In this document: positions 1 to 51,195 of the stretch, piece by piece | Numbering within the stretch: position 1 is the stretch's first letter | Layout of the letters: every line of letters begins with the position of its first letter | From: Nitrosopumilus sp. | GTDB taxonomy: Archaea > Thermoproteota > Nitrososphaeria > Nitrososphaerales > Nitrosopumilaceae | DNA length: 64,000 nt | Reading direction: 5' to 3' | NCBI GenBank assembly: GCA_965218695.1 | Contig: OZ244651.1 | Span: forward strand, 1,760,001 to 1,824,000 | The notes under the pieces: generated by a model | What the model saw: only the letters and a program-made list of their open reading frames with translations | Databases searched by the model: none | What the model was told of the DNA's origin: nothing | Made by a program: the position numbers and the translations under genes

Positions 1-3
1 AGG

Positions 4-411: not shown

Positions 412-452
412 CCGGCGATCTTTTTTATTCACAGATTCCCACACAGGATATC

Positions 453-632
453 ATGGATTCGTGTACGCCTGGCGACGCCGAAGAGATCTGCTGGTTCTGC
501 AGGAAGGGACGCCATAACGACTGCATGGGAGAGATTCCGACGCAGGAGAGATCAGACGGGCCGCACGACTGCGCCTTTGGGACCAGCATGGTTCCGTGCA
601 AGTGTGACGTGTGCGTGCAGCCTGCGCCATGA
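453..632 (+). CDS. Small Cys/His-rich putative metal-binding protein (59 aa)
   Basis: MDSCTPG..CWFC...HNDC...HDC...CKCDVC; ATG at 453 avoids overlap with ilvE. Confidence 0.55.
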   Translation: MDSCTPGDAEEICWFCRKGRHNDCMGEIPTQERSDGPHDCAFGTSMVPCKCDVCVQPAP

Positions 633-850
633 ATGCAGAAGAGATCTCCTAGCTTGATTCACGTTGGATTCTGTCCGTGGGATGTTTTCCGGAATCGACA
701 CCACCAACCAGGTACCGTTACCAAGACATCAGGCGGCTAAGCGGTTGTTTTGGTGTTTTTGCAGGAGAGGCGCGATGGATCTGGTCTTTTTATCGACGGG
801 TACGGCAGCGGCGGCAGGATTGACGGTTCCGAGATCAACCATCCATCAGT

Positions 851-1573
851 CTAGCATCCATGCTCCTCTTTCAGATATGAAAACGAGTCGTTGATCTTGG
901 CCATGATTCGGTTTGATCTCTTTTTTTCCGGTGCGGATTTGTGGATGATTCCCTTTGAGGCGTCATACTTTTTTGCCAACTCCCTGTACCTTGTCTTGAT
1001 CTCATGGCATGTGGCATTCTTTGATATGCCGAATATTTCGTGTGGGGTTTTGGCACGCAGAATTCTCTCAGCCTCGGTCAGCAGCTGTTCTGCTGGCCTT
1101 TTCGGGGGCGTGGTCTGCTGCTGCTGCCGCCGCCGCCCCTTCGGCACAGAACCGTAATCATTTCCAGGAATACTGCCAAACCGGTTGTGGGAATCACGCA
1201 GTATTCTGGCTGCTTCATCCAGAATGTCATACGGTATCCCTTCAAAGGTGTCGTCATCAAAATATGACTGGGATGTTTCTTTCTTGGTCTTTTGTCCTGC
1301 TGTCTGGCTGGTCTTCTGATCTTTTTTCTGATCTTTTTTCTGGCTGGTCTTCTGATCTTTTTTCTGATCTTTTTTCTGGCTGGTCTTCTGGCTGGTCTTC
1401 TGTTGGGAACCGTACTGCCCCTCATGCAGGTTATGTCTAATGCCCATCCTGTTCATTGCGCACCTAGAATCATCACAGGGATTGGTCACAGGCGTGTTCT
1501 CAATGATGTGATGTGGTTCATGGTATATTCCCTGCCTGTTTAGCGGACATTTTGGATCATCGCAGGTGGACAT
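851..1573 (-). CDS. J-domain-like protein with two N-terminal Cys/His repeats and a low-complexity QK linker
   Basis: C-terminal PHEIFGISKNATCHEIKTRYRELAKKY...MAKINDSFSYL matches the DnaJ J-domain pattern; likely start MSTCDD (ATG 1573). Confidence 0.75.
   Translation of the reverse strand: MSTCDDPKCPLNRQGIYHEPHHIIENTPVTNPCDDSRCAMNRMGIRHNLHEGQYGSQQKTSQKTSQKKDQKKDQKTSQKKDQKKDQKTSQTAGQKTKKETSQSYFDDDTFEGIPYDILDEAARILRDSHNRFGSIPGNDYGSVPKGRRRQQQQTTPPKRPAEQLLTEAERILRAKTPHEIFGISKNATCHEIKTRYRELAKKYDASKGIIHKSAPEKKRSNRIMAKINDSFSYLKEEHGC
1304..1399. repeat. In-frame 12-bp tandem repeat (units CTGGCTGGTCTT and CTGATCTTTTTT, order ABBABBAA)
   Basis: Read directly; encodes QKTS/QKKD repeats. Confidence 0.9.
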
Positions 1574-1742
1574 TACACAGTCTTGCCAGAACTCGGAAAT
1601 AGGTGTTATTGGGGGGTTATGGCGGCGGCATGATGAGGCACAGACCAAGTCATTCAGGTGCATTACCCAAAAACACGATACCGCGGATCTCCAAGCACTT
1701 GCAGCACACCCGGATACGCACTCGAACGATTAGCATCAAATA

Positions 1743-2318
1743 GTGCCCCATTCCATGGAACGCATGGAATACGACAAGGAGTTTTGGGATGCCTATGCAG
1801 AGGGCAACGAATCACGATACAACGAGGAGTTTGCAAAGTTTGTCAAAGACCTTGCAGGCTCGCTGCGCTGCACAAGCGTACTTGAGATCGGATGCGGCAC
1901 GGGAATAGATCTGAGATTATTTCCGGATACCTTCCAAGTCACGGGAATCGACTTGAATGATTCGGCCCTTGCAGTTGCAAGGGACAAGATGCCGGCTGCT
2001 GCCTTTGAGACGGGCTCCATTGCAGACCTGCCCCTTGAGGACTCTTCTGTGGACTTTGTCTTCACGCACCAGCTCCTGAACTACCTGAACGATGATACGC
2101 TGGAGAAGGGCGTAGCCGAGATGTACAGGGTGGCAAGAAGATACGTCATGAACTGCGAAAAGTACTCCCCCACAGAGGAACGGATTGATGACCACCACAG
2201 GTATCGCAACATGTTAGAGAGATGGATGAACTACAGGGTAAGGATGGTAAGCAACGTGGACATGCACGAGGATATTGACCCGGACAAGTCCAGGTTCACC
2301 CTGCTCAGAAAACTCTAG
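1743..2318 (+). CDS. Class I SAM-dependent methyltransferase
   Basis: VLEIGCGTG motif I, GIDLN, LPLEDSSVDFV. Confidence 0.9.
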   Translation: MPHSMERMEYDKEFWDAYAEGNESRYNEEFAKFVKDLAGSLRCTSVLEIGCGTGIDLRLFPDTFQVTGIDLNDSALAVARDKMPAAAFETGSIADLPLEDSSVDFVFTHQLLNYLNDDTLEKGVAEMYRVARRYVMNCEKYSPTEERIDDHHRYRNMLERWMNYRVRMVSNVDMHEDIDPDKSRFTLLRKL

Positions 2319-2381
2319 CGGTGCCTGCCACACCGGTGCCTGCCACACCAGGCAGGCATGCCCGGCACCCATGCAGCACGG

Positions 2382-3236
2382 CTATGCGTTGTGGGATATC
2401 TTTGAGGGCTCCCGGATCTGCACCTTTGATATCAGTCCCAGAGAGCGGCATGCAAGCGTCCCAAGAAGGAGGGCCACGGTAATCATCACTATGGTCCCGG
2501 ACGGGGCAATATCGAGATAGTACGAAAGGATGATTCCAAATACTGCAGAGAAGACTGACATTGATACGGATATTCCCACCGTCCTCTTGAATCCCATTCC
2601 AAACAGCATTGCAGTGATGTTTGGGATAACAATCAGTGCAGAGATCAGCAGTATTCCCACCAGCCGCATGGACGTCACCACCGTCACTGCTGCCAGCACC
2701 ACAAACAGATAGTTCAGAAGGGTCACGTTGAGGCCCGATATCCTTGCATGCTCCTCGTTAAACGAGATGTGCAGGAACGGCCTGCGAAACGCAAAGAGCA
2801 TAGCCACGATCCCCGCACTTATCGCGACAATCAGTATGACGTCAGAGGTGCCGACAAGCAGTATGCTCCCAAACAGAAAGCTGAACAGATCCACTGAGAA
2901 TCCTCCGGATGCGCTGGTCAGTATTACCCCAACTGCAAGACCCGACACAAGGACGACTGCGACTGCCGAATCGCCTGATATCTTTGTGCTGGAGCGCAGC
3001 TTCTGAAGTCCCAGGCCGCCAAGAATGGACACCACAAACGCACTCCACAGCGGAAACACTCCCAGGAACAGCCCCACGGATATCCCCCCAAATGCCACGT
3101 GGGCTATCCCGTCGCCAAACAGCGAGTATCTTCTCAGCACCAGAAAGATGCCCATGAGGGAACATGCGGCTGCTACTGCAACGCCTGCAAGGAGCGCCTT
3201 TTGCATGAACCCGTATGATAAAATCTCAAGTACCAT
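2382..3236 (-). CDS. znuB: Zn/Mn ABC transporter permease
   Basis: LRRYSLFGDGIAHVAFGG, LFSFLFGSIL, MRLVGILLISALIVIP. Confidence 0.92.
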   Translation of the reverse strand: MVLEILSYGFMQKALLAGVAVAAACSLMGIFLVLRRYSLFGDGIAHVAFGGISVGLFLGVFPLWSAFVVSILGGLGLQKLRSSTKISGDSAVAVVLVSGLAVGVILTSASGGFSVDLFSFLFGSILLVGTSDVILIVAISAGIVAMLFAFRRPFLHISFNEEHARISGLNVTLLNYLFVVLAAVTVVTSMRLVGILLISALIVIPNITAMLFGMGFKRTVGISVSMSVFSAVFGIILSYYLDIAPSGTIVMITVALLLGTLACRSLGLISKVQIREPSKISHNA

Positions 3237-3240
3237 GTCC

Positions 3241-4035
3241 CTAGTGTCCGTGCATGTGCGCCTGCATCGCAGACTCTGTGTACGTCTTTAGAATATTCTC
3301 GTCTGCAAAAAAAGCCTCCTTGTGGCCGTGAAAGAAGAGCTGCCGGTTCATGCATGCAACCTTGCTTGCATACTTTTCCATCGTGTCAAGATCGTGCGAG
3401 GACCATATTATGGTGGTTCCGTTCCGGTTAATCTCAGTCACCGCATCATAGAATCTTGTCTGGGATTCGACATCGACGCTTGTAACCGGCTCGTCAAGCA
3501 CCAGGATCAGCGGATCGTTTATCAGCGACGTCGCGATGAACACCCGCTGCTGCTCCCCGCCTGAGAGCTCCCCTATTCTGCGATGCCCAAGATGCCCCAG
3601 TCTGACAGTCTTTAGCACCTCTTCAACCCTAGAGTCGGTTCTGTCTATGTCCCGGTATGTATGGTTCCAGGAGTAGCCGTTGTCCCTTACCAGCTCTTCC
3701 CCCCTTGCCGCTCTCTTCTCGGATATGATTCCCATGGAGACGATATCATGCACGGTTGCAGGAAAGTTTGGCTCAAAGGCAACCTTCTGCGGCACGTACC
3801 CCACAAGTGGCAAAATCGACTGGAACTTGTCACGACCGTACCCGAAGACGTTTATGGTCCCGCTGTACGGCTGCAACCCAAAGATGGCGCGAAACATCGT
3901 GGTCTTTCCAGAACCGTTGGGCCCCACTATCCCCAGAAGATCCCCTACATCCACGTCAAAGTTGATGTCATCTACTGCCACATGCTCACCGTACGAGACG
4001 GTGAGATTCTGCACGTGAAGAATACTCATTGGCAT
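3241..4035 (-). CDS. znuC: Zn/Mn ABC transporter ATPase
   Basis: GPNGSGKT, LSGGEQQR, LVLDEP; His-rich C-terminus. Confidence 0.92.
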   Translation of the reverse strand: MPMSILHVQNLTVSYGEHVAVDDINFDVDVGDLLGIVGPNGSGKTTMFRAIFGLQPYSGTINVFGYGRDKFQSILPLVGYVPQKVAFEPNFPATVHDIVSMGIISEKRAARGEELVRDNGYSWNHTYRDIDRTDSRVEEVLKTVRLGHLGHRRIGELSGGEQQRVFIATSLINDPLILVLDEPVTSVDVESQTRFYDAVTEINRNGTTIIWSSHDLDTMEKYASKVACMNRQLFFHGHKEAFFADENILKTYTESAMQAHMHGH

Positions 4036-4982
4036 TCCAGCGCGCCTCGAAGCGACATTAGGTTCCTTTCCATCTTGTCAATAAACGTAATACCAGCTGT
4101 CGTCTCCTCGGGCGTGAGTGCCTCGATCGGACTCAGCACAAGGACGTCGGCGCCTGCCTCCTCTGCAATGGCCTCGGCAAGCCGGGGATCAACCAGATCC
4201 TCAGAGAAGATTATCCGGATGTCATTGTTTCTTACAAAGTCTATGAATTCTGCAATCTCGGTGGCAGACGCCTCGGTATCAGGCGCCTGTCCGCCCAGCG
4301 GGTTTATCTTTATTCCGTACCGCTCTCCAAAATATGCAAAGGCGCTATGGAACGGAACGATGGTGTCCTGCCGGCAGTCTGCCAGGCCCTCCCGAATCAG
4401 GACATCAAGTGAATCCAGCTGCGCGTTGTAGTCTGCGGCATTCTGGAAATAGTATGACTTGTTCTCGGGGTCTGCCAGAGCCAGTCCGTCCCGTATGTTA
4501 TTCACCTGCTGCTTTACAAGTATCGGATCCAGCCACACATGGGGATCAAAATCGCCATTGGCGTGGTCATCGTCATTGGCGTGGTCATCCTCTGCACCCA
4601 AAAGAGTAATGCCGTCTGATGCCTTGACAAACAGTATTCCGTCAAACTCGCCGGACTCGATTATGTTTGAGACATACGGCTCAATTCCAAGCCCGTTGTA
4701 GACAAATACGTCCGTATCCTCCAACAAGAGTATCTCGCTTGCCCTAGGCTCCCAGTCATGAGCCTCTGTCCCCGGGGGAATATACTGCTCTACGACGGCA
4801 CGGTCCCCTGCGACGTTTCTTGCAAACTCATAGTATGGAAAAAACGATGCAAGCACGCGAATCTTCTCGGACTCTTCGGTAACGGCATCATCCGATGCAG
4901 GCTGCTGCATGCCAAATGTTACTGCAAGTGCGACTGCAAGCACTGCTATGACGCCTATACCAACATAGCGTTTGTCCACCAT
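4026..4982 (-). CDS. znuA: Zn/Mn ABC transporter substrate-binding protein
   Basis: N-terminal anchor, EAHDWEP, DPHVWLDP, FHSAFAYF, acidic/His loop DDHANDDDHAN. Confidence 0.92.
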   Translation of the reverse strand: MVDKRYVGIGVIAVLAVALAVTFGMQQPASDDAVTEESEKIRVLASFFPYYEFARNVAGDRAVVEQYIPPGTEAHDWEPRASEILLLEDTDVFVYNGLGIEPYVSNIIESGEFDGILFVKASDGITLLGAEDDHANDDDHANGDFDPHVWLDPILVKQQVNNIRDGLALADPENKSYYFQNAADYNAQLDSLDVLIREGLADCRQDTIVPFHSAFAYFGERYGIKINPLGGQAPDTEASATEIAEFIDFVRNNDIRIIFSEDLVDPRLAEAIAEEAGADVLVLSPIEALTPEETTAGITFIDKMERNLMSLRGALECQ

Positions 4983-5003
4983 GTCCCATCTTTATTAACA
5001 CCA

Positions 5004-5112
5004 TATATAAGTTTAATAATTATTATTATAAATTCTATATTTTTAATCATTTATTGTCTGCTGTAAATATAAAAATTATTAAGATTATCTAGCAAGTTTA
5101 AATAATGATTAA
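5004..5112. promoter_or_regulatory. Divergent znuA / NikR-like promoter region with a 7-1-7 inverted repeat TAATAAT-T-ATTATTA (5014-5028)
   Basis: AT-rich intergenic region; minus-strand TTATATA box at ~5004-5010 next to the perfect 7-1-7 repeat. Confidence 0.5.
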
Positions 5113-5127
5113 CAAGAATACCAACAG

Positions 5128-5511
5128 ATGCCCGTAATCTCAATATCGCTAAACGACAAGATGCTAGACGAGCTTGACGGCCTTCAGGGATCCATGGGGT
5201 TTACGGGGCGCTCAGAGATCATCAGGGCCGGCATCAGGAGCTTCGTACAGGAGGAGAAGGAAAAGAGCGGCATAATCGGCATGCAGAGTGCCGTGTTGCT
5301 GGTGGTCCATCCCGACGAGTTCGATGATCAGGTTGCAAGGATAAAGCACAAGTACGAGGATCTGATACGGACACATCTGCACAGCAAGATAGACGGGGAC
5401 AGGTGCGTGGAGATGTTTCTGCTGGATGGGGACTCTGAAAGGATACACGAGGTAACGTACGGGTTTCAGACCGACAAAAGGATGGACACGGTAAAACTGG
5501 TGGCCCTGTGA
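5128..5511 (+). CDS. NikR/CopG-family ribbon-helix-helix metal-responsive regulator
   Basis: MPVISISL...GRSEIIRAGIR RHH domain; C-terminal HLH...C metal site (THLHSKIDGDRCVE). Confidence 0.88.
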   Translation: MPVISISLNDKMLDELDGLQGSMGFTGRSEIIRAGIRSFVQEEKEKSGIIGMQSAVLLVVHPDEFDDQVARIKHKYEDLIRTHLHSKIDGDRCVEMFLLDGDSERIHEVTYGFQTDKRMDTVKLVAL

Positions 5512-5754
5512 GGGTTTTGTCAAATTCAGGGTTGCCGTCACTGCCTGTAAATTTTCGGTTATTTGTAGAATTCCGTGAAATATCTCACAAAAAATATGGA
5601 TTCACGAAAGCATGCAGGGGGATTGGAAAAACGATTGATGACTGGCGAGAAACAAAAGAGAGGAAAACAATGAAAGGATGGATCAGACGGTTATATCGCC
5701 TGCAGGTGGGTTCTGGTTCGTTTTGGTGATCTGAACAATAAAACTGACTCGAAC

Positions 5755-6069
5755 CTATTTGGCCAATTTTTCAGCATTTTCATACCCTTTTAGAATCCAC
5801 TTCATGGCATCATCTGTTGTGGTTAGATCTGAATCAATTTCAATCCATCCCATCCTAGCACCGTGCGAAAATGGTTTGATTGCTTTTGATTTTATAGCAA
5901 TTTCCTGCTGATCTTTAGGAAGCCTAATGATGATTTCGTGGTTGTTTTTATTGCTGAATCCAACAAAAAATTTCTTTTTTATTGAAAAACATTGATAGCC
6001 GAACATGGGTCTGGTTGTTACATGCTTCATAGATTCAACCTTCTTTTTGATTGAGTCGTAACTATTCAA
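5755..6069 (-). CDS. TfoX N-terminal-like protein
   Basis: TTRPMFGYQCF...KFFVG...MGWIEI pattern; AT-rich relative to its neighbours. Confidence 0.6.
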   Translation of the reverse strand: MNSYDSIKKKVESMKHVTTRPMFGYQCFSIKKKFFVGFSNKNNHEIIIRLPKDQQEIAIKSKAIKPFSHGARMGWIEIDSDLTTTDDAMKWILKGYENAEKLAK

Positions 6070-6088
6070 TGATATTCTCCTTTGGTTT

Positions 6089-7388
6089 CAGTAGTCGGAA
6101 ATTTACCCTCTAAGCCATCCAACAGATGTTCGCAGACGTGTTAACATTTTTCGAGCATACGGATCTATTATCTACGGCGTCCTTGCCCACCCTAGTGTTT
6201 GCGCAAAAAGGTGGGCAGGTACACCGTAACAAGATCGGAGAAAGGATGCTTAATACCTTGTCAGGAATACTGTGGTCTGCACCCATAGGATTCCCTACTG
6301 GGAACAATGCCCAATACGGGGTGGGCGAGTTTGCAGCCATACTGATGAAGATGTCTGAATCCAACATAGCCTCCGAGGAGGCAATCAGGCTGCTCAAGCA
6401 TGCCAAAAAGAAGATGCCGTCACCCAAGTGGTTTCGCAACATGGTAAACTCGCTAGAATCAGACGGTGCAGACGAACTCTGCAGGGACATGCTCACACGC
6501 ACCGCAAGGCTTGCCAAGAATACGTGCCGGTACAAGGGAGGCGTACTGGTGGCAATAGACAAGCACCTGATACCAAGGCACGACAAGGACAACATGTCAC
6601 ACCTGATATGGTCCAAACCAAAGGGCGGTACAGGCAGGTTCGAGTGCTATGCGACAATGCACGTGGTAGCAGAGCAGGTTCCGGCCATTTTGGAGTGCAT
6701 GCAGGTCACGCGCAGCGTGGACAACGCCGATTTTGTGCGTAAATTCATGCAAAAACTCAGGGATTACAGGATACGGGCCCGGCTGCTGCTGATGGACCGC
6801 GAGTTTTACTCGACTGAGATAATCAGGCTTGTATCCGAACAAAGGCGCAAGTTCCTGATGCCGGCAGTCAAGAACGTGGGGATGAAGAGGGCGATACGGG
6901 AGCACCACGATAAATCACGCAGGGCAGTCTCACGGTACACCCTCAGAAACGCAGCAGGCCAGTCTGTTACATTCACGTTGATAATCACGCCCTCAAAAAA
7001 GATAGACGATCCTGATGCCGATGCCACGGAAAGATACCATGTCTTTGCCACCAACCTTTCCCCTGCCAGGGCGCTAGACGAGATTGAGACGCTTCCAGAG
7101 GAGTACAGGAGAAGGTGGGGGATAGAGACAGGATACAAGCAGGTAGAGCAGGTGCGTCCGAGGACGACAAGCCGCAATGCGTCGTTTAGGGCAATCATGT
7201 TTTACGTCTCGCTGTTCATGTACAACACGTGGGCAGTGGAGCAGTACCGTGCGGATTCGAGTTATGATCGGGTGACTCTGGCGCTTGTCGCATATGCTGC
7301 GGCCATGGCTGCATTGGAATTATGTAGGATTGTGGGTCAACCGTATGATGTCGGGGGACCTGCCTAAGGGGTAAATTTCCGACTACTG
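6089..7388 (+). mobile_element. ISH3-family insertion sequence, intact copy 1
   Basis: 20-bp TIR CAGTAGTCGGAAATTTACCC at both ends; flanks GGTTT / AGTAT. Confidence 0.88.
6126..7367 (+). CDS. ISH3-family DDE transposase
   Basis: VAIDKH, LMDREFY, YRRRWGIETGY (YREK-like) motifs. Confidence 0.88.
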   Translation: MFADVLTFFEHTDLLSTASLPTLVFAQKGGQVHRNKIGERMLNTLSGILWSAPIGFPTGNNAQYGVGEFAAILMKMSESNIASEEAIRLLKHAKKKMPSPKWFRNMVNSLESDGADELCRDMLTRTARLAKNTCRYKGGVLVAIDKHLIPRHDKDNMSHLIWSKPKGGTGRFECYATMHVVAEQVPAILECMQVTRSVDNADFVRKFMQKLRDYRIRARLLLMDREFYSTEIIRLVSEQRRKFLMPAVKNVGMKRAIREHHDKSRRAVSRYTLRNAAGQSVTFTLIITPSKKIDDPDADATERYHVFATNLSPARALDEIETLPEEYRRRWGIETGYKQVEQVRPRTTSRNASFRAIMFYVSLFMYNTWAVEQYRADSSYDRVTLALVAYAAAMAALELCRIVGQPYDVGGPA

Positions 7389-7389
7389 A

Positions 7390-9038
7390 GTATGGACTCA
7401 GGTCGCCAAACTGCGCTACGCTGCCACTGCGGGTGCAGAAACCTTCTGATATTGTTCGGGTGGCTTGAATATGCTCCAGCCAGGATCCATGATGATGTTC
7501 TCGACTGCTTGGCGTGGGAAGATGCCCTGCTTGTGGCAGGTGCGCGCCACTGATATCAGCACCGAGAAGACCTCCCGCCCCTCGGGTTCGGACAGCTGGT
7601 GCCGCACGTTCCTGTGCAGCACCGCAGTGTCGCGTATCTCCAACTCTGCTGCGTTGTTATGCGGCGGCATGCCCGGATGCCTGAGGAACGTGAACATGCA
7701 CGGGGCCGCGTTCTCAAGCGTCGTGCGGAAGTCGTGGGACTCCCCGTAGTCCGAGGCGATTTGGAGCACCGTCCTTTCCAGGTCCAGGCACTCGCCGGAT
7801 CCGGCAGACTCCCTGTCCTTGACTGACCGGTACAGGGCAAGCAGCCTGCGGTAGCAGGCAAGATCGTTGCCGCCGTTCTTGATGGCGTACTCTTCTGCGG
7901 CGCGCAGCAGGTGCACCCAGCACCTCTGCTTGACTGGGAACATGTTGTAGACGGTGTACCCATCCACCACCACCGGCTTGCCAAGCAGCCGGGCAAAATG
8001 CGCGTTTATCACCAGGGCCGCCCTGCTCGGGGCGGCCACCAGATACGTGGCGTCCCCGGTGGTGACCAGCCACACGTACCCCTTCTTCCCGTTCATCTTC
8101 ATGTGGGACTCGTCAAACTGCACGAACGCGGCCTCGGCGATGTGGGCCAGTATGCCCTCGTACGCGCCCTTGAGGATCTTTTTGAGGGCCTTGCGCGCGT
8201 TCCATATGGCGTTTGGCGATATGCCAAACCCGTACAGCGCCTTGAAATAGTATGATACGGTATAGTCCGTGCTCCTCTTGTCGTAGTACTCCTCCACAAA
8301 CCCCAGGGCCTTGGGGCCAAGCGACGTGCCGGGGATCGTGGGAGGCACGGCAGAGCTGACGTGATTGCACCTCTTGCACAACCCCTGTCCCACCAGGTAC
8401 GCGACGCGCTCGATCCTCATGGCACCGTCGTCGGGAAAATCATACACCATCTTGACAATGGACGGCATCCGGACCAGGTGTCCGCGTCCGCACTTTTCGC
8501 ACCTGCACACTGGCAGACTCTCGGTCCTCTCGGCCCTGTTCTTGTGCGAGGCGCCGGCGTGTCCTGCCGGCGGTCCCTTGCGGGTCTTGTCTCCGGCGCC
8601 TTCGCCTTCTGATTCAGGTCCGCCTTCCGATTAGGACTTTTCTCCTTCCTTGGGCCCGCTGCCATCGGACTCCGTCTTGGCCTCCATGTCCATCCGCTTC
8701 CTGAATGCCGTGCGGTCCGAGTTGTACAACGAATATGTGGACGAGGACATGTTGGGGTTCTCGTACTTGCGGAGCCTCCTGCGGTATCCTGCATTCTCCA
8801 GGGTCAGGCGGTCGTTTTCAATCTCGAGCAGCGTCACCTTCTTGGTGAGTTCGGCATTTGTCTTGTACATCGTTTTCTTAAACTTCTCGAACTCCGTCAC
8901 TACCCTTGCCAGCTCCCTGCGCAGGAGCGATATCTCTGATTTGCTCACGTGGGTTCGCGGATTCCGAGATCAATAAATCGGCATGGTCTAATTTGATGCA
9001 CAAGCGATTAAAATCTAGGCACGGACCTGAGTCCATAC
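7390..9038 (-). mobile_element. IS66-family single-ORF element A
   Basis: 15-bp TIR GTATGGACTCAGGTC at 7390-7404 and 9024-9038; no matching TSD seen. Confidence 0.85.
7416..8948 (-). pseudogene. IS66-family transposase with one in-frame TAA at 8631-8633
   Basis: ORFs 8631-8948 and 7416-8510 share a frame; QFDES, VVDGY, QRCWVHLLR, PPHNNAAE motifs. Confidence 0.85.
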
Positions 9039-9182
9039 CTTTGGAGTACCTTGAGGGACAGGGGCTGCTGGATTAGGAATCCCGGCGCGCGGGCGTCCGT
9101 GTCATCTTTGCCGCACTGGGGACGCCGCGGGGACTCGGCCAGTGAAGGTGCCGTGGAACCTAAAAAAGGTAACATTACAGGC

Positions 9183-9205
9183 CGAATCCCTCTAGACCCG
9201 CTACC
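9183..9205 (+). other. Distal att site: 23-bp copy of the tRNA-Lys 3' end (CGAATCCCTCTAGACCCGCTACC)
   Basis: Exact reverse complement of 51191-51213. Confidence 0.9.
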
Positions 9206-9709
9206 AATGTACACATCGGGTGTTCTGCCAATCATCCAAAGCGCCATGAATCAATAATCCAAGATCAGAGAAGGCACGAGGCATGATTCGCCATAACGAC
9301 ACCGGTTGGGAACAGTTCGGTTTTGGTGTACTGGGCAAGCCTGTCGGTTGGGTGGTTGGCATCTCGGTGATGCCATTGCACAATTACGTGATAACTAGCG
9401 CGCCACACGCAACCCAAACATCATATTTTTAACGTTCAAAAATAAGACCCATGCAGATTTGACTACCGACTCTGGCGTATTGGACTATTTTGAGGGAACC
9501 GTGAGGGAATTTATAGTACGCACGCTCTCGGGCACAAACAACTGGTGGAAGTCCTGCATCCCGCAGGAGATAAGAAATAATGCAGACAAGAGGCACGGGG
9601 ATGAAAAAAAGATGGCCGACGTGCTAAACAAGCCCGTATACGAGGCGTGGCATTACGTTAATTTTGATGGTTACGGAAAGAGTAAGTGTTCACGTGGTTT
9701 AACTCATTT

Positions 9710-11116
9710 TTAGGCGTATTTTGCAATCTCCGCCAAGTAATCCAATTTCTTGTTTTTCCATGTCATTACACATGAAAAGAAATTCGCCATCCACGTCATC
9801 GTCTCCTCTGCCCTTATGCTGCCCCGTATTTTTCTGTGCACGACTATCTCGCGCAACCCGCGTTCTGCAGCATTGTTTGTAGGCGGGATCTTTGGGTTCA
9901 GCACGAACCGGAACAGGTCGCTGCCAGCATTGCTGATCTTGACCATGAATTTTTCCAATATTGGATCGTCGGCGTACCTTGCAACGATCTTTTCGATGCA
10001 TGACGTCAGCATGGCAGACGCGTTGTCCCGGAGAGAGCGCGAGCGTTTCCTGCTTGCCCTTCTGGCATAATCATAGATTATGCGCAGGTGCTTCAGGACG
10101 TTGCGCGCGCCTGGGCAGTCCGGATTGCGGTTGCAGATGTCCCTGGCCTCGCGTATTATGTGCGACCAGCAGCGCTGGACGCGGTATTTTCCGTACGCCG
10201 TCCAGCCGTCGCACACTAACGTGCCGTCCCAACCCCCAAGCGCTTCTTTCAGAACCTTTGCCCCCCGGCTGTCCCGTATCACGTACAGCGCGTGCCCGGT
10301 CAGCGGATCGTGCAGTATCCACACCCAGACGTTGCGGCCGTTTAGGTGAATCGATGTCTCGTCGGCGTGCAGTATCTTGGCCTTGCGTATCATGGCGGCA
10401 ATGGCTGCCGCAGGGGCGCCCAGCGACGTTCCCAGCCTGCGCATTATGTTGTGCGCCGTGCCCGAGGAGAGTGTAATTCCGTACCGCGACATGCGGTCTG
10501 CGATCATCCTAAACGGCATGCGACACACGTAATCGTCTGCAACATCAGTCGTTATGCTCGGATCGTAGCTGCCCTTGTCTGGAAGGCCGGTCTCGGGCTT
10601 GATGTCCACCAGACCGCAGGAGCAGCGACACGTGTTTATGGTGTGGCGCGTGGTGATGACCTTTATCGTGCGCTCCACCCTGGTAATGTCGCGTTTTTCT
10701 GACTGCACTATGGAAAGGCTACCCGAGCCGCATTCGGGGCAGGCCTCCGGGGTGTGTTCCTCAAACTCGGTGGGTTTTGGCTTGCGGGTGCGGCCCATGT
10801 GGCCTTTTTGCCCCCCGCGCGACTTCCCGCTGCCGGCCGCATCCACGCGGTCCTTTTGATCCCGGGAGGCTTTTGTGGATTTATTGTAGGCATTCTTTTC
10901 GTCGCCTTTTCCCTTTGTGTCAGGCCATCCGGGCCCCCTTTTTTGTGATGACGGGGTGTTGTAATTGTCATGCCGCACCAGCCTGCGCTTAAGATCAGCA
11001 ACTGCCAGATTCAATTCCTCAATTATCTGCCCTTGCATCTCAATCGTCTGCTTGAGCTTGATGTTCTCAGTCTTGAGATCCGTGTACATCTTTTTGAGTT
11101 CAGCCTGGCTTTTCAC
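9710..11116 (-). CDS. IS66-family transposase
   Basis: Coiled coil, CPEC zinc finger, HADET, VCDGW, QRCWSH, PTNNAAER. Confidence 0.92.
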   Translation of the reverse strand: MKSQAELKKMYTDLKTENIKLKQTIEMQGQIIEELNLAVADLKRRLVRHDNYNTPSSQKRGPGWPDTKGKGDEKNAYNKSTKASRDQKDRVDAAGSGKSRGGQKGHMGRTRKPKPTEFEEHTPEACPECGSGSLSIVQSEKRDITRVERTIKVITTRHTINTCRCSCGLVDIKPETGLPDKGSYDPSITTDVADDYVCRMPFRMIADRMSRYGITLSSGTAHNIMRRLGTSLGAPAAAIAAMIRKAKILHADETSIHLNGRNVWVWILHDPLTGHALYVIRDSRGAKVLKEALGGWDGTLVCDGWTAYGKYRVQRCWSHIIREARDICNRNPDCPGARNVLKHLRIIYDYARRASRKRSRSLRDNASAMLTSCIEKIVARYADDPILEKFMVKISNAGSDLFRFVLNPKIPPTNNAAERGLREIVVHRKIRGSIRAEETMTWMANFFSCVMTWKNKKLDYLAEIAKYA

Positions 11117-11207
11117 ATCGGGTTTGGATTACCATCCTATTTGGATCTGTGGTTTGCACAAAATTTACCCAAGAGTGAACTGAATTAGGCACGACGTGAA
11201 CACTTAC

Positions 11208-11410
11208 CCAGATTCAATTCCTCAATTATCTGCCCTTGCATCTCAATCGTCTGCTTGAGCTTGATGTTCTCAGTCTTGAGATCCGTGTACATCTTTTTGA
11301 GTTCAGCCTGGCTTTTCACATCGGGTTTGGATTACCATCCTATTTGGATCTGTGGTTTGCACAAAATTTACCCAAGAGTGAACTGAATTAGGCACGACGT
11401 GAACACTTAC
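11208..11410. repeat. 203-bp direct tandem duplication of 11005-11207
   Basis: Identical sequence read directly. Confidence 0.9.
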
Positions 11411-11752
11411 CGGAAAGATAATCGCAAAAAGGGATAACTGGAGGAATTACTTCGAGGGCATATTCCTAGACAAGCATGTCTTTGAATACAAAATGAAGGT
11501 TATACTCTCTCTTAGAAATGACGTGAGACATGGGAGAAATCTTGATCACGTAAACAGCCTTAGGCTTAGAATACACTGCTATGATATACTCTCACAGATA
11601 TATGAAAAGGACGACACACTTTCATATGACATGGACAGCCTAGTCACACATACCGGTCTGGGCTAGAATCTACCTGCCTATGCGAGCTGCCGTGTTGACT
11701 TTTTTGGCTAAGTTTCATTACCCCTACGATTTCACTAAAAATGAAAATTATG

Positions 11753-13351
11753 GTAACTGTGTAGTTTTTTGATCAAATGTTGAATTCCATGCCTACAAAC
11801 GTCTGTGTAGTTTTTTTGAAACTATTTTTAATCACTTGATCGAGTTTTTCTCTCCATTCCAATTTTTAGATCATCAGTTCCCACGGTTTGCATTATGTCT
11901 GATGATAATTCCGAGTCAAGGATTGCAGAACTGGAGGAAAAAGTGGAGATGATGGCAGGGCAGCTGGCCAAAAAGGACCAGCAGATAGCCAAACTCACTG
12001 ATCTTTACGCTGCCGCCCTCAGGCAGATCCAGGACCTCACGGCAGAGTTGCAGGAAGCAAGGGGCACCATATCGGCTGCCGTTGCAAGGAGCATCGGCGC
12101 AAAACCTGACAAAAAGACGGGCAGTGCCAGACGCCGCACAAAGGCCAAGGGCAAGCCAAGCGTCCACAGGCGCACGGGCCTTGCGCGTCCTGAAAGAATA
12201 GACGCAGAGGAGACGGCAGATCCCCACACGTGCGACAACTGCGGCAGCTCCGACCTCTCCGAGTGCGTATCCACGTACACAAAGGTGGTAAGGGAGGCTG
12301 CCAAGACGGAACTAAAGCACATCAAGGTGACAGTAAAGAGAAGACGTTGCAGGAACTGCAAGAAGACCGTGTCCGGCAGGACTCCGCTGGCACTGCCAAA
12401 CTCCAGGTACGGGATCAACTTTATGATAATGATGGTCATCCTCAGGCTGCACGGCATGTCAGACCTCAGAATATGCAATATTGTCATGATGATGTACTCG
12501 GCAAGAATCACGGAATCTGCGATAAACCGTATGGTGTGCAGGATGGCCCGGGAGCTCGGGCCGCTGTACGAGAAGATCAAGGAGGAGGTAAGAAACTCGC
12601 CTGCGATAAACGGGGACGAGTCCGTCTGGCGCGTCGACGGCACGAACTACTGGCTGTGGGCGGTGGTAACAAGGTACGCCGTAATCTACGAGGTGCACCG
12701 CCGCAGGAACTCGAAGGTTCCAAAAAAGATGCTCGGCAAGGACTACCCGGGATGCGTGACGTCTGACTCGTGGGGAGCGTGGAACGTCATAGGAGCCATG
12801 CACCAAAAGTGCCACCTGCATTACGTCCGGGACGTCAAGGCCACCCTGAGATACAAGAATCCCGGCCAGGACTACCGTCGGCACGCAAGGACGCTGCGCG
12901 CGATACTGCGGGACTCGCACGTCGACGGCGCCGTTCCGGGAGGGGCAGACGCGCTTGCCGCAAAGAAGAGGCTGGATCGTCGCATCGCGTCCATGATAGG
13001 CAGGCTCGAGAAGAACCGCGACTGCAAGCACTGCAACAGGATGCGCAAGAGGCTGGTGCGGGAAAGGGATCACCTGTTTGCGTTTCTGGAGACAGACGAT
13101 GTCGAATACCACAACAACCGGGCAGAGCGGGCCATCAGGCCGTGCGTCATCCTGCGCAAGAACAGCAACGGGAGCAGGTCAAAGAAGGGCGCAGACGCCA
13201 TTGCCACGCTGATGAGCATCAAGCAGACATGCAAGGCAAGGGGAGATGATCTTGGCACGGTCCTGCGCGAGGGTCTGGTCCTATGTCAAAAAAATACATA
13301 GTTTCTTGGAGACATGGAATTCAGCATTTGATCAAAAAACTACACAGTTAC
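11753..13351 (+). mobile_element. IS66-family element C
   Basis: ~40-bp TIR GTAACTGTGTAGTTTTTTGATCAAATG...; 8-bp TSD AAATTATG at 11745-11752 and 13352-13359. Confidence 0.92.
11895..13301 (+). CDS. IS66-family transposase
   Basis: CDNC..CRNC, NGDES, TSDSW, QKCHLHY, HNNRAERAIR. Confidence 0.92.
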   Translation: MSDDNSESRIAELEEKVEMMAGQLAKKDQQIAKLTDLYAAALRQIQDLTAELQEARGTISAAVARSIGAKPDKKTGSARRRTKAKGKPSVHRRTGLARPERIDAEETADPHTCDNCGSSDLSECVSTYTKVVREAAKTELKHIKVTVKRRRCRNCKKTVSGRTPLALPNSRYGINFMIMMVILRLHGMSDLRICNIVMMMYSARITESAINRMVCRMARELGPLYEKIKEEVRNSPAINGDESVWRVDGTNYWLWAVVTRYAVIYEVHRRRNSKVPKKMLGKDYPGCVTSDSWGAWNVIGAMHQKCHLHYVRDVKATLRYKNPGQDYRRHARTLRAILRDSHVDGAVPGGADALAAKKRLDRRIASMIGRLEKNRDCKHCNRMRKRLVRERDHLFAFLETDDVEYHNNRAERAIRPCVILRKNSNGSRSKKGADAIATLMSIKQTCKARGDDLGTVLREGLVLCQKNT

Positions 13352-13452
13352 AAATTATGTAAATCTGTAGGGACATCAACACACGGCAAGAACTAGGGAA
13401 AGACATCCTGCTTGTTCGCTATTTTTTTAAGCAAAGTCTTATACGCCTAGTC

Positions 13453-14871
13453 ATGACAGGCACCCAAAACCGGATTCCATATGATCAGATTCCGGATGCA
13501 GTCATGTACATTCTGAACAGGAAGGGCAGAACCGTAGAAGATCTTGAAGGGGAACGCGGCAGCAGATATGTGGTGGCGCCCGCCCAACTTGGCTCTAAAA
13601 ATGTAGCCGTATGGCACCGCAAAAGACAGCTTGACGAGTCCGTGGCACAAATCCTGAAACTGCATCCTGACGTATGGGGACCTGCCAGGCACTCAAACGA
13701 TTTTTCCAACGCCACATCCCAGTATCTCTCCAAGCTCAGGAAGAATGGAACCATAGCAGACCTGAACCCAGGCAAGCGGTATGGGATATTCAGGCTTGTA
13801 CGTTCATCCCCGCTCGCGCAGGACATGCCAAAGATGAGCTATGAACGGCGTTTCACTACGTCATCGTCCACATCCGGTACGGAACCCGCATCAGAAGTCG
13901 AGATGAGACAGGCATTCCTCTCAATACTTACCATGGGAGTCAAGGACAACACATACAAGTTTGCACTTGCCCGGGCAATCCTGGATCACTGCCGGGAGTC
14001 TCAGGGCATGGAAAACTCCCTAGATATACCATACGAGAGTCTTTCAGACAAGTTCCTGCAGTACTACTGGCACCAAGAGTGCCGATTCAGGATAAAACAG
14101 GACTTTCACACAAAAAGCATGCCAAAGGTAATCCAGGTAATCAGGGGAGTCTTTGGCCAAAACACCCCGGGCCGCTTTGATCTTCTTGATGATGCCGATG
14201 TGGCAAAGGCAAAAAAACAGATACTAAAGACCGTCTTTGGGCATGCAAGAAACAAGACGTCCATGGTCGTGCCCCGGTTTCAAAAAGTCAGGGTGGGTTC
14301 ACGTTCAGAGGAGAGGCGCGTCTTTTACGACTATAGTGATGACACAAAGATTATTCGCCTCAGGCCCGAGGCGTTTGAGTTCTTCAGGAACAACCACGGC
14401 ATACTGATGGGAACAGTTCTTGCAGAGTGGACTAGATTTCTTGAGCGGACAAACATCGGCCTTCCAATGCTTCTGGCAAAGATCCACATGGACGAGGCTT
14501 CAAGGGGCCCGCTTACCAAATACAAGAACCTCTTCTTACGACACACCGGCCACTGCTTTTACTGTGGTAGCAGGCTGGAAAAAAACTACACCCATGTGGA
14601 TCACTTTATCCCGTGGTCGTACATCTTTGATGACAACGTATGGAACCTGGTTCCGGCGTGCCAAGACTGCAACTGCAAAAAGAGCAACTCGCTCCCACAA
14701 GACGAATTCCTGCAGAGCCTCATACGCAGGAACGACAAATACTATGACACCATCGCCCCACTAAGAAGATCCCTGAAAATGCTGGATGCGCGCCACGGCT
14801 GGAAGCCAGAGATAGAAAACCACTACAAAACCTGCCTCTACTATGGATTCAACATAATATCCATGCCATGA
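13453..14871 (+). CDS. HNH endonuclease with an N-terminal extension (possible modification-dependent nuclease)
   Basis: KDNTYKFALARAIL; CFYC...HVDHFIPWS...NLVPACQDCNCKKS. Confidence 0.85.
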   Translation: MTGTQNRIPYDQIPDAVMYILNRKGRTVEDLEGERGSRYVVAPAQLGSKNVAVWHRKRQLDESVAQILKLHPDVWGPARHSNDFSNATSQYLSKLRKNGTIADLNPGKRYGIFRLVRSSPLAQDMPKMSYERRFTTSSSTSGTEPASEVEMRQAFLSILTMGVKDNTYKFALARAILDHCRESQGMENSLDIPYESLSDKFLQYYWHQECRFRIKQDFHTKSMPKVIQVIRGVFGQNTPGRFDLLDDADVAKAKKQILKTVFGHARNKTSMVVPRFQKVRVGSRSEERRVFYDYSDDTKIIRLRPEAFEFFRNNHGILMGTVLAEWTRFLERTNIGLPMLLAKIHMDEASRGPLTKYKNLFLRHTGHCFYCGSRLEKNYTHVDHFIPWSYIFDDNVWNLVPACQDCNCKKSNSLPQDEFLQSLIRRNDKYYDTIAPLRRSLKMLDARHGWKPEIENHYKTCLYYGFNIISMP

Positions 14872-15016
14872 TATTTCACAGGGACAGCTTGGACCAGCTT
14901 AACCTATTCCTTCAAAAACATGATTGATTTTTGCCTTGATAATTACTCCTGTGATCTTTATCTTTTTTTTTGCAGGTTTTATGGCTCCGTCCAGAGTTTT
15001 GGCAAATTAAAAAAAG

Positions 15017-16542
15017 GTAAGTGTTCACGTCGTGCCTAATTCAGTTCACTCTTGGGTAAATTTTGTGCAAACCACAGATCCAAATAGGATGGTAATCCAA
15101 ACCCGATGTGAAAAGCCAGGCTGAACTCAAAAAGATGTACACGGATCTCAAGACTGAGAACATCAAGCTCAAGCAGACGATTGAGATGCAAGGGCAGATA
15201 ATTGAGGAATTGAATCTGGCAGTTGCTGATCTTAAGCGCAGGCTGGTGCGGCATGACAATTACAACACCCCGTCATCACAAAAAAGGGGGCCCGGATGGC
15301 CTGACACAAAGGGAAAAGGCGACGAAAAGAATGCCTACAATAAATCCACAAAAGCCTCCCGGGATCAAAAGGACCGCGTGGATGCGGCCGGCAGCGGGAA
15401 GTCGCGCGGGGGGCAAAAAGGCCACATGGGCCGCACCCGCAAGCCAAAACCCACCGAGTTTGAGGAACACACCCCGGAGGCCTGCCCCGAATGCGGCTCG
15501 GGTAGCCTTTCCATAGTGCAGTCAGAAAAACGCGACATTACCAGGGTGGAGCGCACGATAAAGGTCATCACCACGCGCCACACCATAAACACGTGTCGCT
15601 GCTCCTGCGGTCTGGTGGACATCAAGCCCGAGACCGGCCTTCCAGACAAGGGCAGCTACGATCCGAGCATAACGACTGATGTTGCAGACGATTACGTGTG
15701 TCGCATGCCGTTTAGGATGATCGCAGACCGCATGTCGCGGTACGGAATTACACTCTCCTCGGGCACGGCGCACAACATAATGCGCAGGCTGGGAACGTCG
15801 CTGGGCGCCCCTGCGGCAGCCATTGCCGCCATGATACGCAAGGCCAAGATACTGCACGCCGACGAGACATCGATTCACCTAAACGGCCGCAACGTCTGGG
15901 TGTGGATACTGCACGATCCGCTGACCGGGCACGCGCTGTACGTGATACGGGACAGCCGGGGGGCAAAGGTTCTGAAAGAAGCGCTTGGGGGTTGGGACGG
16001 CACGTTAGTGTGCGACGGCTGGACGGCGTACGGAAAATACCGCGTCCAGCGCTGCTGGTCGCACATAATACGCGAGGCCAGGGACATCTGCAACCGCAAT
16101 CCGGACTGCCCAGGCGCGCGCAACGTCCTGAAGCACCTGCGCATAATCTATGATTATGCCAGAAGGGCAAGCAGGAAACGCTCGCGCTCTCTCCGGGACA
16201 ACGCGTCTGCCATGCTGACGTCATGCATCGAAAAGATCGTTGCAAGGTACGCCGACGATCCAATATTGGAAAAATTCATGGTCAAGATCAGCAATGCTGG
16301 CAGCGACCTGTTCCGGTTCGTGCTGAACCCAAAGATCCCGCCTACAAACAATGCTGCAGAACGCGGGTTGCGCGAGATAGTCGTGCACAGAAAAATACGG
16401 GGCAGCATAAGGGCAGAGGAGACGATGACGTGGATGGCGAATTTCTTTTCATGTGTAATGACATGGAAAAACAAGAAATTGGATTACTTGGCGGAGATTG
16501 CAAAATACGCCTAAAAATGAGTTAAACCACGTGAACACTTAC
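15017..16542 (+). mobile_element. IS66-family element B copy 2 (1526 bp, opposite orientation to copy 1)
   Basis: Same TIR and identical protein; 8-bp TSD AAAAAAAG. Confidence 0.92.
15108..16514 (+). CDS. IS66-family transposase
   Basis: Translation identical to 9710-11116. Confidence 0.92.
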   Translation: MKSQAELKKMYTDLKTENIKLKQTIEMQGQIIEELNLAVADLKRRLVRHDNYNTPSSQKRGPGWPDTKGKGDEKNAYNKSTKASRDQKDRVDAAGSGKSRGGQKGHMGRTRKPKPTEFEEHTPEACPECGSGSLSIVQSEKRDITRVERTIKVITTRHTINTCRCSCGLVDIKPETGLPDKGSYDPSITTDVADDYVCRMPFRMIADRMSRYGITLSSGTAHNIMRRLGTSLGAPAAAIAAMIRKAKILHADETSIHLNGRNVWVWILHDPLTGHALYVIRDSRGAKVLKEALGGWDGTLVCDGWTAYGKYRVQRCWSHIIREARDICNRNPDCPGARNVLKHLRIIYDYARRASRKRSRSLRDNASAMLTSCIEKIVARYADDPILEKFMVKISNAGSDLFRFVLNPKIPPTNNAAERGLREIVVHRKIRGSIRAEETMTWMANFFSCVMTWKNKKLDYLAEIAKYA

Positions 16543-17651
16543 AAAAAAAGGAATCGTATTTGGTATTATATTTTTTGGAACAACAGCAGTGTTTTTTGAA
16601 TTGTTTACTCCTTGGGATTGTTTTGGTGAATCTTTATATTTACTGGCTTGTGAGTAATTTTTGTGGATTGTTGGATTAGTAGCGACATGCGTGGTATTTA
16701 GTTCCATCTACAAACCCAGTAGTCGGAAATTTACCCCTTAGGCAGGTCCCCCGACATCATACGGTTGACCCACAATCCTACATAATTCCAATGCAGCCAT
16801 GGCCGCAGCATATGCGACAAGCGCCAGAGTCACCCGATCATAACTCGAATCCGCACGGTACTGCTCCACTGCCCACGTGTTGTACATGAACAGCGAGACG
16901 TAAAACATGATTGCCCTAAACGACGCATTGCGGCTTGTCGTCCTCGGACGCACCTGCTCTACCTGCTTGTATCCTGTCTCTATCCCCCACCTTCTCCTGT
17001 ACTCCTCTGGAAGCGTCTCAATCTCGTCTAGCGCCCTGGCAGGGGAAAGGTTGGTGGCAAAGACATGGTATCTTTCCGTGGCATCGGCATCAGGATCGTC
17101 TATCTTTTTTGAGGGCGTGATTATCAACGTGAATGTAACAGACTGGCCTGCTGCGTTTCTGAGGGTGTACCGTGAGACTGCCCTGCGTGATTTATCGTGG
17201 TGCTCCCGTATCGCCCTCTTCATCCCCACGTTCTTGACTGCCGGCATCAGGAACTTGCGCCTTTGTTCGGATACAAGCCTGATTATCTCAGTCGAGTAAA
17301 ACTCGCGGTCCATCAGCAGCAGCCGGGCCCGTATCCTGTAATCCCTGAGTTTTTGCATGAATTTACGCACAAAATCGGCGTTGTCCACGCTGCGCGTGAC
17401 CTGCATGCACTCCAAAATGGCCGGAACCTGCTCTGCTACCACGTGCATTGTCGCATAGCACTCGAACCTGCCTGTACCGCCCTTTGGTTTGGACCATATC
17501 AGGTGTGACATGTTGTCCTTGTCGTGCCTTGGTATCAGGTGCTTGTCTATTGCCACCAGTACGCCTCCCTTGTACCGGCACGTATTCTTGGCAAGCCTTG
17601 CGGTGCGTGTGAGCATGTCCCTGCAGAGTTCGTCTGCACCGTCTGATTCTA

Positions 17652-25683: not shown

Positions 25684-25684
25684 T

Positions 25685-51157: not shown

Positions 51158-51195
51158 GAATACGTGTGGAACCTATAAAAGTTCTTTAAAGGTAG

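Follow-up and report, generated by a model that had tools for sequence, protein, structure and literature searches.

A defence island in tRNA-Lys(CTT) of a Nitrosopumilus genome, with one attachment site probably turned round by an IS-bounded inversion

Layout of the tRNA-Lys(CTT) locus

The genome of a Nitrosopumilus sp., an archaeon of ammonia-oxidising type (assembly G000: 9 contigs, 2,627,169 bp, made of a main contig C1 of 2.46 Mb and 8 small contigs) harbored, next to its tRNA-Lys(CTT) gene, an island of defence-related genes framed by two copies of the tRNA 3' end in opposite orientation. The island was analysed in a stretch of 64,000 nucleotides (C1:1760001-1824000, hereafter the window), and positions below are those of the window unless a contig is named. 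Read from the tRNA gene inwards, the locus comprised an integrase gene (product P0001), the cargo genes, an insertion sequence (IS) of ISH3-like type, chromosomal DNA carrying several IS66-type ISs, the distal copy of the tRNA end with its arm, a further IS66-type IS and a second ISH3-like IS (Table 1).

Table 1. Features of the window around the tRNA-Lys(CTT) island
Feature	Position	Strand	Remarks
ISH3-like IS, copy A	6089-7388	+	1300 bp; 20-bp terminal inverted repeats; flanks GGTTT (6084-6088) and AGTAT (7389-7393)
Segment read as inverted, 9.3 kb	7389-16716		one island end (IS66-type IS, arm, attachment (att) core) and 7.5 kb of former chromosomal flank
IS66-family IS, island end	7390-9038	-	no matching 8-bp target duplication
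Unique island-side DNA	9041-9153	+	single copy in the assembly; between the IS66-type IS at 7390-9038 and the arm
Element-side arm, 29 nt, TGGAACCTAAAAAAGGTAACATTACAGGC	9154-9182	+	abuts the distal core directly
Distal att core	9183-9205	+	23-bp exact copy of the tRNA-Lys(CTT) 3' end with 4 nt downstream; inverted relative to the tRNA
Original chromosomal flank of the tRNA	9206-9681	+	homologues adjoin tRNA-Lys(CTT) in G002, G018 and X9/X10 contigs
IS66-family IS, simple insertion	9682-11411	-	1526 bp; own target duplication; 204-bp tandem copy of its end
Second IS66-family IS in flank	11753-13351	+	all 5 full copies with matching target duplications
HNH-domain gene, chromosomal flank	13453-14871	+	in relatives adjoins nikR, on the opposite strand
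Third IS66-family IS in flank	15016-16542	+	intact 8-bp target duplication
ISH3-like IS, copy B	16717-19120	-	interrupted by an IS630-type IS at 17652-18753
Island cargo	19121-49549		Pfam, PADLOC, NCBIfam; many genes of unknown family
UvrD-type helicase fused to PD-(D/E)XK nuclease	19340-22456		GajB-like in PADLOC
IS5-type transposase	23124-24437		
Vsr	24517-24945		PADLOC
Two-HATPase protein with receiver-domain neighbour	25075-27997		
ParE-like protein	28433-29221		
EcoRII-C-like nuclease	29652-30425		REase_II in PADLOC
Avs4-like STAND NTPase	31411-36480		1689 aa
HNH protein	36652-37602		
NYN protein	37722-38507		
IS5-type transposase	45467-46810		
Integrase P0001	49550-51157	-	535 aa; full-length open frame; long C-terminal coiled coil
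Integrase-side arm motif, TGGAACCTATAAAAG	51167-51181	+	10 nt upstream of the integrase start codon
Proximal att core	51191-51213	-	last 19 nt of tRNA-Lys(CTT) and next 4 nt
tRNA-Lys(CTT), integration target	51195-51269	-	ARAGORN

The tRNA-Lys(CTT) gene was the sole tRNA gene in the window and the single gene of the CTT isoacceptor among the 41 tRNAs detected in the assembly (both by ARAGORN). The + strand at the distal core read CGAATCCCTCTAGACCCGCTACC, of which the proximal core was the exact reverse complement. Each 14- to 23-mer of the core occurred exactly twice in the 2.63-Mb assembly, at these two sites. Within the window, a 23-mer shifted two bases upstream matched only the sites at 9183 and 51191 at up to 3 mismatches (chance expectation: 0 in 100 dinucleotide-preserving shuffles), and a 25-mer taken from the tRNA 3' end and allowed up to 6 mismatches returned the same two sites. 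No further directly oriented att copy was thus found, either in the assembly with exact 14- to 23-mers or in the window with the 25-mer.

The arrangement of tRNA gene, integrase gene and distal copy was that of an integrated element, with the integrase start 34 nt from the core and the tRNA 3' end repeated at the opposite boundary. Having the anatomy of an attL/attR junction, the repeat at 9183-9205 is, as far as sequence can tell, a true distal att. The two att copies were inverted and not direct repeats, and the IS-bounded inversion described below accounts for this orientation.

A probable inversion of one island end between two ISH3-like copies

The flanks of the two ISH3-like copies were reciprocally exchanged. 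Read in the orientation of the IS, copy B was preceded by AGTAT (window 19121-19125, ATACT) and followed by GGTTT (window 16712-16716, AAACC), whereas copy A had the two in the opposite order. Matching 5-bp target duplications were found around 5 of the 6 full ISH3-like copies of the genome, copy A being the exception. The IS630-type insertion split copy B into parts of 370 and 930 bp. The IS copies concerned were 99.8-100% identical, so that the IS events are probably recent.

The ISH3-like transposase found its best NCBIfam match in transpos_ISH3 (E 5.5e-42, 143.9 bits, under the curated cut-off of 225 bits), with IS4 second, and DDE_Tnp_1 alone in Pfam. Members of the ISH3 family carry short terminal inverted repeats and generate target duplications of 4-5 bp, with which the copies described here (20-bp repeats, 5-bp duplication) are in agreement.

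The orientation of the segment was compared in detail in two (G002 and G018) of the 30 relatives identified. Both belonged to related species, 91% (G002) and 83% (G018) identical to the window over the tRNA side. Their outer flanks (window 1-5511 and 51193 onwards) were collinear with the window, and the homologues of 9337-14871 were reversed. Homologues of window 9337-9681, 11412-11764 and 13408-14871 lay in both relatives between nikR and tRNA-Lys(CTT). Because the target duplications were reciprocally swapped and both relatives showed the opposite orientation, the segment 7389-16716 is, on these two lines of comparison, inverted relative to the ancestral order; by parsimony, the orientation in the window would be the derived state.

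When the segment was turned back computationally, the distal att mapped to the - strand at 14900-14922, in direct orientation with the tRNA site, and the separation of the two sites changed from 42,031 bp at present to 36,314 bp. A sequence-only reading of this stretch had proposed a 23-bp exact copy of the tRNA-Lys 3' end, on the + strand where the tRNA is on the - strand and within an ISH3-inverted segment, and direct repeats about 36 kb apart before the inversion. Coordinates, strands and sizes were all correct, the swapped duplications and the opposite orientation in G002 and G018 agree with a distal att lying inside the inverted segment, and the distance of about 36 kb was recovered. Another directly oriented att, which that reading had named as a finding that would speak against it, was absent from the assembly and window scans reported above.

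Two further patterns at this locus were considered and set aside. The 4 + 6 bp of extra identity past the ends of the ISH3-like copies was explained by the swapped duplications together with chance matches. A nested inversion between the IS66-type copies at 9682-11207 and 15016-16542, whose apparent 1551-nt, 99% repeat arms extended beyond the IS ends, was rejected since each copy had its own matching 8-bp duplication.

A second reciprocal swap was found elsewhere in the genome, between inverted IS66-type copies at C1:1021727-1023252 and C1:1092028-1093553 (8-bp duplications GTGCAAAC / AAAATAAC). This exchange of duplications points to another inversion between IS copies, spanning about 70 kb, and such inversions thus seem to recur in this genome. 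For the IS66-type IS involved, 22 of 29 full copies had matching duplications.

Arms and flanks of the attachment sites

Both att cores were accompanied by a related motif. The first 15 nt of the element-side arm repeated the integrase-side motif at 51167-51181 in inverted orientation, with 14 of the 15 nt matching, so that circularisation of the element would place one motif on each side of the core, inverted relative to each other and 23 nt from the core centre. These inverted motifs are putative recombinase-binding or promoter elements, and the integrase-side motif is a likely candidate for a TATA-type promoter element. The genome held the 15-nt motif five times, in each case no more than about 50 nt from an att-like core or an integrase start. 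One of them, at C1:1106860, stood at equal distance (32 nt from the core start) beside tRNA-Lys(TTT) and a paralogous integrase. The element-side arm recurred as well, with one base changed next to a 19-nt core of tRNA-Lys(TTT) type (C1:605676-605723) and unchanged next to an 8-nt core (C1:612684-612720).

The 36-nt pattern of arm and core was present in 1 of 101 genomes, G000 alone, with no match at up to 3 mismatches in the 100 other genomes of the genus. Neither a free nor another integrated form was detected with this pattern in viral_contigs or metagenome_contigs, and a looser arm-gap-core pattern gave no match in viral_contigs, metagenome_contigs or genome_contigs; records of the genome itself were possibly excluded from these collections.

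Other att-like sites of G000 lay far from their tRNA genes. The distal att for tRNA-Lys(TTT), made of the arm and 19-nt core at C1:605676-605723, was in direct orientation and 501 kb away from its tRNA gene. A 936-bp stretch beside this site was duplicated at 95.6% identity, with a variant arm, at C1:1654248-1655180, and part of it resembled the 1.28 kb adjoining tRNA-Lys(CTT) in G002. In G002 itself, a 24-nt copy of the tRNA-Lys(TTT) end lay ~453 kb from that gene, with no integrase within 20 kb.

On the chromosomal side of the distal core, a small flank gene started at 9453-9681, was cut by the IS66-type IS and resumed at 11412. A HEPN-type identity was rejected for this gene, which had no Pfam family and a weak DUF1678 match (E 0.0024) below the cut-off. 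G002 carried a Fic-domain gene (positions 16940-17845 of the stretch C1:428200-448199 of that genome), placed between its HNH gene and the small flank gene. This Fic-domain gene was missing in G000, where an IS66-type IS occupied about that place.

Public sequencing runs

Four of the 18 public runs listed (X1, X5, X9 and X10) were used as contigs, which ended at IS copies. Contigs of X9 and X10, about 92% identical, joined the tRNA end to a homologue of 9360-9681, and in one X10 contig the tRNA T-arm letters GTCGAGGGTT preceded position 9183. A contig of X1 contained 9154-9201 with different flanks, and contigs of X5 were identical to the window over 4000-6115 and 9161-9700. The IS66-type IS at 9682 was absent from the X9, X10 and X1 contigs, which continued past 9678-9681 uninterrupted. 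A clean junction homologous to window 9206-9336 was found in none of G002, G018, X9 and X10.

A divergent tyrosine recombinase beside the tRNA gene

Sequence profiles gave little help in naming P0001. It had no Pfam match even at E <= 10, no NCBIfam match and no PHROG integrase match, and its PDB matches, by sequence or with a 27-sequence profile, were coiled coils only, with no recombinase among them. Homologues were numerous (339 at E <= 0.001 among 7999 scored candidates), and among the best 120 of these 339, six were named integrase by their source, in records from Nitrosopumilus, Nitrosarchaeum and Cenarchaeum. In an alignment of 27 of the 120 listed homologues, R172, R301, H330 and Y340 were invariant. 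By the known motifs of tyrosine recombinases, these four residues are taken to be the catalytic Arg/Arg/His/Tyr.

An AlphaFold2 model of P0001 had a mean predicted local distance difference test score (pLDDT) of 71.3 and a predicted template modelling score (pTM) of 0.46. A Foldseek search of the PDB with this model gave 23 matches at E <= 0.001, and the 31 rows listed were all tyrosine recombinases (probability 0.92-1.00). XerA (5hxy, E 3.5e-5), Cre and XerH were the top matches at probability 1.00, and Tn1549 Int, an integron integrase and SroF were also among the rows; the template modelling (TM) scores were modest (0.34-0.49 on the target). An hhalign comparison (probability 82%, E 1.1e-5) with a protein of this genome that matches PF00589 paired R172 with the Arg of GMRIGE, R301 with the Arg of HSFR and Y340 with the Tyr of LLQYDRL; the first His of the HxxR motif was an Asn in P0001. 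On account of the fold search, the invariant Arg/Arg/His/Tyr and the alignment to the Pfam-positive integrase, P0001 is assigned as a divergent tyrosine recombinase, apparently intact.

P0001 had paralogues in the same genome. One, 55% identical (C1:1105219-1106847), lay beside tRNA-Lys(TTT) in the same arrangement and with the same arm motif; another was found at C1:490538-491725, with fragments at 2438574-2439068 and 750153-750362. The P0001 family appeared as a large thaumarchaeal one, with a C-terminal coiled coil of about 170 aa and no Pfam, NCBIfam or PHROG integrase model matching it. An integrase remnant of G018 was located in a mosaic (positions 13373-19900 of the stretch C1:770000-789999 of that genome) that ended in an integrase truncated to its N-terminal 188 aa. 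The remnant was 70% identical to P0001 and, compared as DNA, closer (88.6%) to the tRNA-Lys(TTT)-associated paralogue of G000.

Cargo of the island and surrounding insertions

The cargo encoded several proteins with matches to defence systems. The large STAND NTPase matched Avs4 in PADLOC (E 2.5e-147, profile positions 166-1569 of 1570) and in NCBIfam (E 3e-152, 508.6 bits against a cut-off of 1500), with its N-terminal effector part (residues 1-278) outside the profile match, and its product is best called Avs4-like. Considering the Avs4-like, GajB-like, Vsr and REase_II matches in PADLOC, "defence island" seems a fair label for the element. The sequence-only reading had used this label and had called the integrase apparently intact; the PADLOC matches uphold the former, and the full-length frame, the family-invariant residues and the modelled tyrosine-recombinase fold speak for the latter.

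Three in-frame tandem repeat units of 54 nt (46599-46776) were found within the IS5-type transposase open reading frame at 45467-46810. Outside the island, 12-nt in-frame tandem repeats (1278-1402) occurred within an open reading frame with a weak DnaJ match (851-1663). Beyond the tRNA on the other side, by 8.5 kb, a 1151-aa protein (59758-63213) with weak matches to coupling proteins of TraG/TrwB/VirD4 type adjoined an IS66-type IS (58101-59549), and it is possibly part of a conjugative element leaving the window.

The three IS66-type insertions in the flank part of the segment were simple insertions, each with its own duplication. In the first, an exact 204-bp tandem duplication of the IS end occupied 11005-11410, with the 8-bp target duplication outside it. 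The IS66-type IS at the island end behaved differently: the mismatch of its duplications persisted when an insertion of the ISH3-like IS 4 nt into its end was allowed for, and a deletion beside it, via recombination with a second copy since lost, is the likely cause. Two copies of this same IS66-type IS lay head to tail, with 8 bp between them, at C1:2180949-2184258, and an X5 contig showed the same head-to-tail joint with GGTAAAAT between the IS ends. The pair may represent either a tandem dimer or a form resembling a circle junction.

Proposed history of the island and other explanations

The explanation that we regard as probable is that an element of ~36 kb resides in tRNA-Lys(CTT), that one of its att sites was flipped by an IS-bounded inversion, and that the island was thereby fixed in the chromosome. 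The element would have inserted into the 3' end of the tRNA gene via its own tyrosine recombinase, leaving a direct pair of att sites, one in the tRNA gene by the integrase gene and the other, the displaced tRNA end, 36 kb off by the old flank. The ISH3-like IS would later have been present as inverted copies, one inside the island near its distal end and one in the chromosomal stretch that separates nikR from the HNH gene. These copies would then have recombined and turned 9.3 kb round, carrying the distal att and its arm along, and both att sites, apparently still intact, would now stand opposed 42 kb apart.

Tyrosine recombinases delete the DNA between directly repeated sites and invert it between inverted ones. 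For this reason, one-step excision by the integrase should be blocked in the present geometry, and the integrase could instead invert the 42 kb between the present sites. Such att x att recombination would invert 9206-51190. Its two junctions would both stay chromosomal: an attB-like one, where the tRNA body meets its ancestral flank, and an attP-like one, where the arm meets the integrase side. The same inversion would bring the ISH3-like copies into direct orientation, from which IS x IS recombination would release a circle bearing attP and the integrase gene.

The lock would be incomplete, since an IS x IS and an att x att recombination together, whichever came first, should still release a circle. 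Several observations weigh against this explanation. Concerning the integrase, Pfam PF00589 did not match P0001 even at E <= 10, and the model had pLDDT values under 50 across residues 300-343, a stretch containing three of the four conserved positions. Concerning the element, the Pfam scan of the cargo identified neither an excisionase nor any replication, conjugation or virion gene, two IS5-type transposase genes were present there, and the IS66-type IS by the arm had no target duplication; the island may have been immobile before the inversion. In the relatives, the flank and tRNA-Lys(CTT) were separated in G002 by a 1.28-kb stretch with no homology to 9206-9336 and no integrase, and in G018 by the mosaic of ~6.5 kb with its integrase remnant. 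The distal att was not found in G018, and a search of the G002 and G018 loci for a second, degenerate att, allowing up to 5 mismatches over 25 nt, was negative. Finally, the junctions in X5 were compatible with either orientation, and the inverted orientation rests on one assembly.

Among other explanations, the one that survives best, though we hold it to be rather unlikely, is that the inversion is real but a bystander scar, the element being already a decayed remnant whose flip was without functional consequence. The IS66-type IS at 7390-9038, 143 bp from the core, suggests an adjacent deletion by its lack of a matching duplication, and the IS5-type genes and the lack of recognised excisionase or transfer genes in the cargo point the same way. 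So do the integrase remnant at tRNA-Lys(CTT) of G018, reduced to the N-terminal 188 aa, and the distances of hundreds of kb between other att-like sites of the genome and their tRNA genes. However, the 23-bp cores were identical with a conserved motif in both arms, the integrase frame was of full length with all family-invariant residues present, and the identity of 99.8-100% between IS copies argues for recent events.

Slightly less favoured, and in our view doubtful, is an origin of the inversion in a single event, in which one ISH3-like copy would have undergone intramolecular replicative transposition, with no recombination of two existing copies. By the established topology of transposition its product would have the same reciprocal flank pattern, and no strain was seen with two ISH3-like copies in uninverted arrangement. 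The present data, however, fit both routes alike, and the consequences for the att pair would be identical.

An assembly artefact, in which a wrong assembler path through the inverted IS copies hides a real chromosome of ancestral order with direct att repeats and an excisable island, would yield exactly the reciprocal flank pattern and fits the X5 contigs, which break at IS copies, but it is very improbable, because a 2.46-Mb contig that spans dozens of near-identical IS copies as long as 1.65 kb, among them one IS66-type IS with 29 full copies, suggests reads longer than the repeats, the IS630-type insertion shortens the ambiguous repeat in copy B (370 + 930 bp), and the 8 small contigs hold no alternative for the locus.

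Beyond fixation by a flipped att site, the island might be conditionally mobile. With both att sites and the integrase intact, the integrase would flip the 42 kb back and forth at a measurable frequency and IS recombination would toggle the 9.3 kb, giving four states of which only some release a circle, and the IS-bounded segment would act as a heritable and reversible gate on loss or transfer. We give this scheme little credence. If true, it would make the population a mixture of orientations. The sequence-only reading had likewise cast the orientation of the segment as a switch for island mobility, which is conjectural; the run contigs, ending as they do at the IS copies, showed no second orientation.

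Relation to known systems

Thaumarchaeal integrated elements were surveyed by Krupovic et al. 2019 (PMC6563490), in whose account the att sites had a median of 17 bp, most being <26 bp, and 57% of the integrations were in tRNA genes. The present island shares with the elements described there a tyrosine recombinase, a tRNA 3' end as target and a short att (23 bp here), and with the "cryptic integrated elements" of the same account a cargo of defence genes and genes of unknown family. IS insertions inside elements are likewise shared (in 7 elements there). The elements of that survey, as it presents them, are defined by direct repeats, whereas here the pair was inverted and one end lay within a flipped segment. 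The word "inversion" does not occur in the main text of the survey.

The closest bacterial parallel concerns Staphylococcus aureus OC8, where an IS256-mediated inversion of 1 Mb splits the island vSa-beta (PMC5065196). As reported there, recombination of opposed IS copies, one of them in the island, left heterogeneous flanking duplications and an island in two parts, as at the present locus. The S. aureus case is bacterial and of 1 Mb, in contrast to the archaeal inversion of 9.3 kb, and the parts of that report dealing with the inversion mention no integrase and att pair of changed relative orientation.

An archaeal precedent for the predicted 42-kb flip is provided by Int-pTN3 of Thermococcus nautili, a tyrosine integrase that also targets a tRNA gene and for which integration, excision and inversion between inverted att sites are described in vitro (Cossu et al. 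2017, PMC5495485). According to that description, the integrase itself drives chromosomal inversions, whereas IS copies bound the inversion here; the integrase is also of SSV type, with its gene split on integration, in contrast to the whole integrase gene beside the tRNA in the window.

Immobilised elements are known as "grounded" (cryptic) prophages and as immobilised archaeal elements, for which the routes set out in the relevant parts of the two accounts are mutated att sites or recombinase genes (PMC6379469, PMC8371274). In common with them, the island as interpreted here would have lost excision and been retained with genes useful to the host. Unlike in those cases, as the two accounts put them, no damage is apparent here in the att cores or the recombinase gene, and the change concerns the relative orientation of the sites alone. 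No description of an archaeal att pair inverted by an IS-bounded flip was found in searches of open-access text. The general phenomenon is known in bacteria, and the advance is a clean example, not a new principle.

Significance

Searches for integrated elements that demand direct repeats would miss cases such as this one. Experiments at this locus would need similar care, as polymerase chain reaction (PCR) across attP and attB junctions alone cannot separate excision from integrase-mediated inversion, because the 42-kb inversion would create the same attP-like and attB-like junctions in the chromosome. For the large thaumarchaeal integrase family to which P0001 belongs, and which lacks a curated profile, the arm-core-arm layout offers a first picture of the att site.

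The swapped duplications and, independently of them, the opposite orientation in relatives point to a way of fixing an island through an IS-driven flip of one of its ends, for which neither the integrase nor the att sites need be mutated. The Avs4-bearing island would in practice be fixed in this IS-rich chromosome, which bears on how defence genes such as Avs4 may be retained in IS-rich thaumarchaeal genomes.

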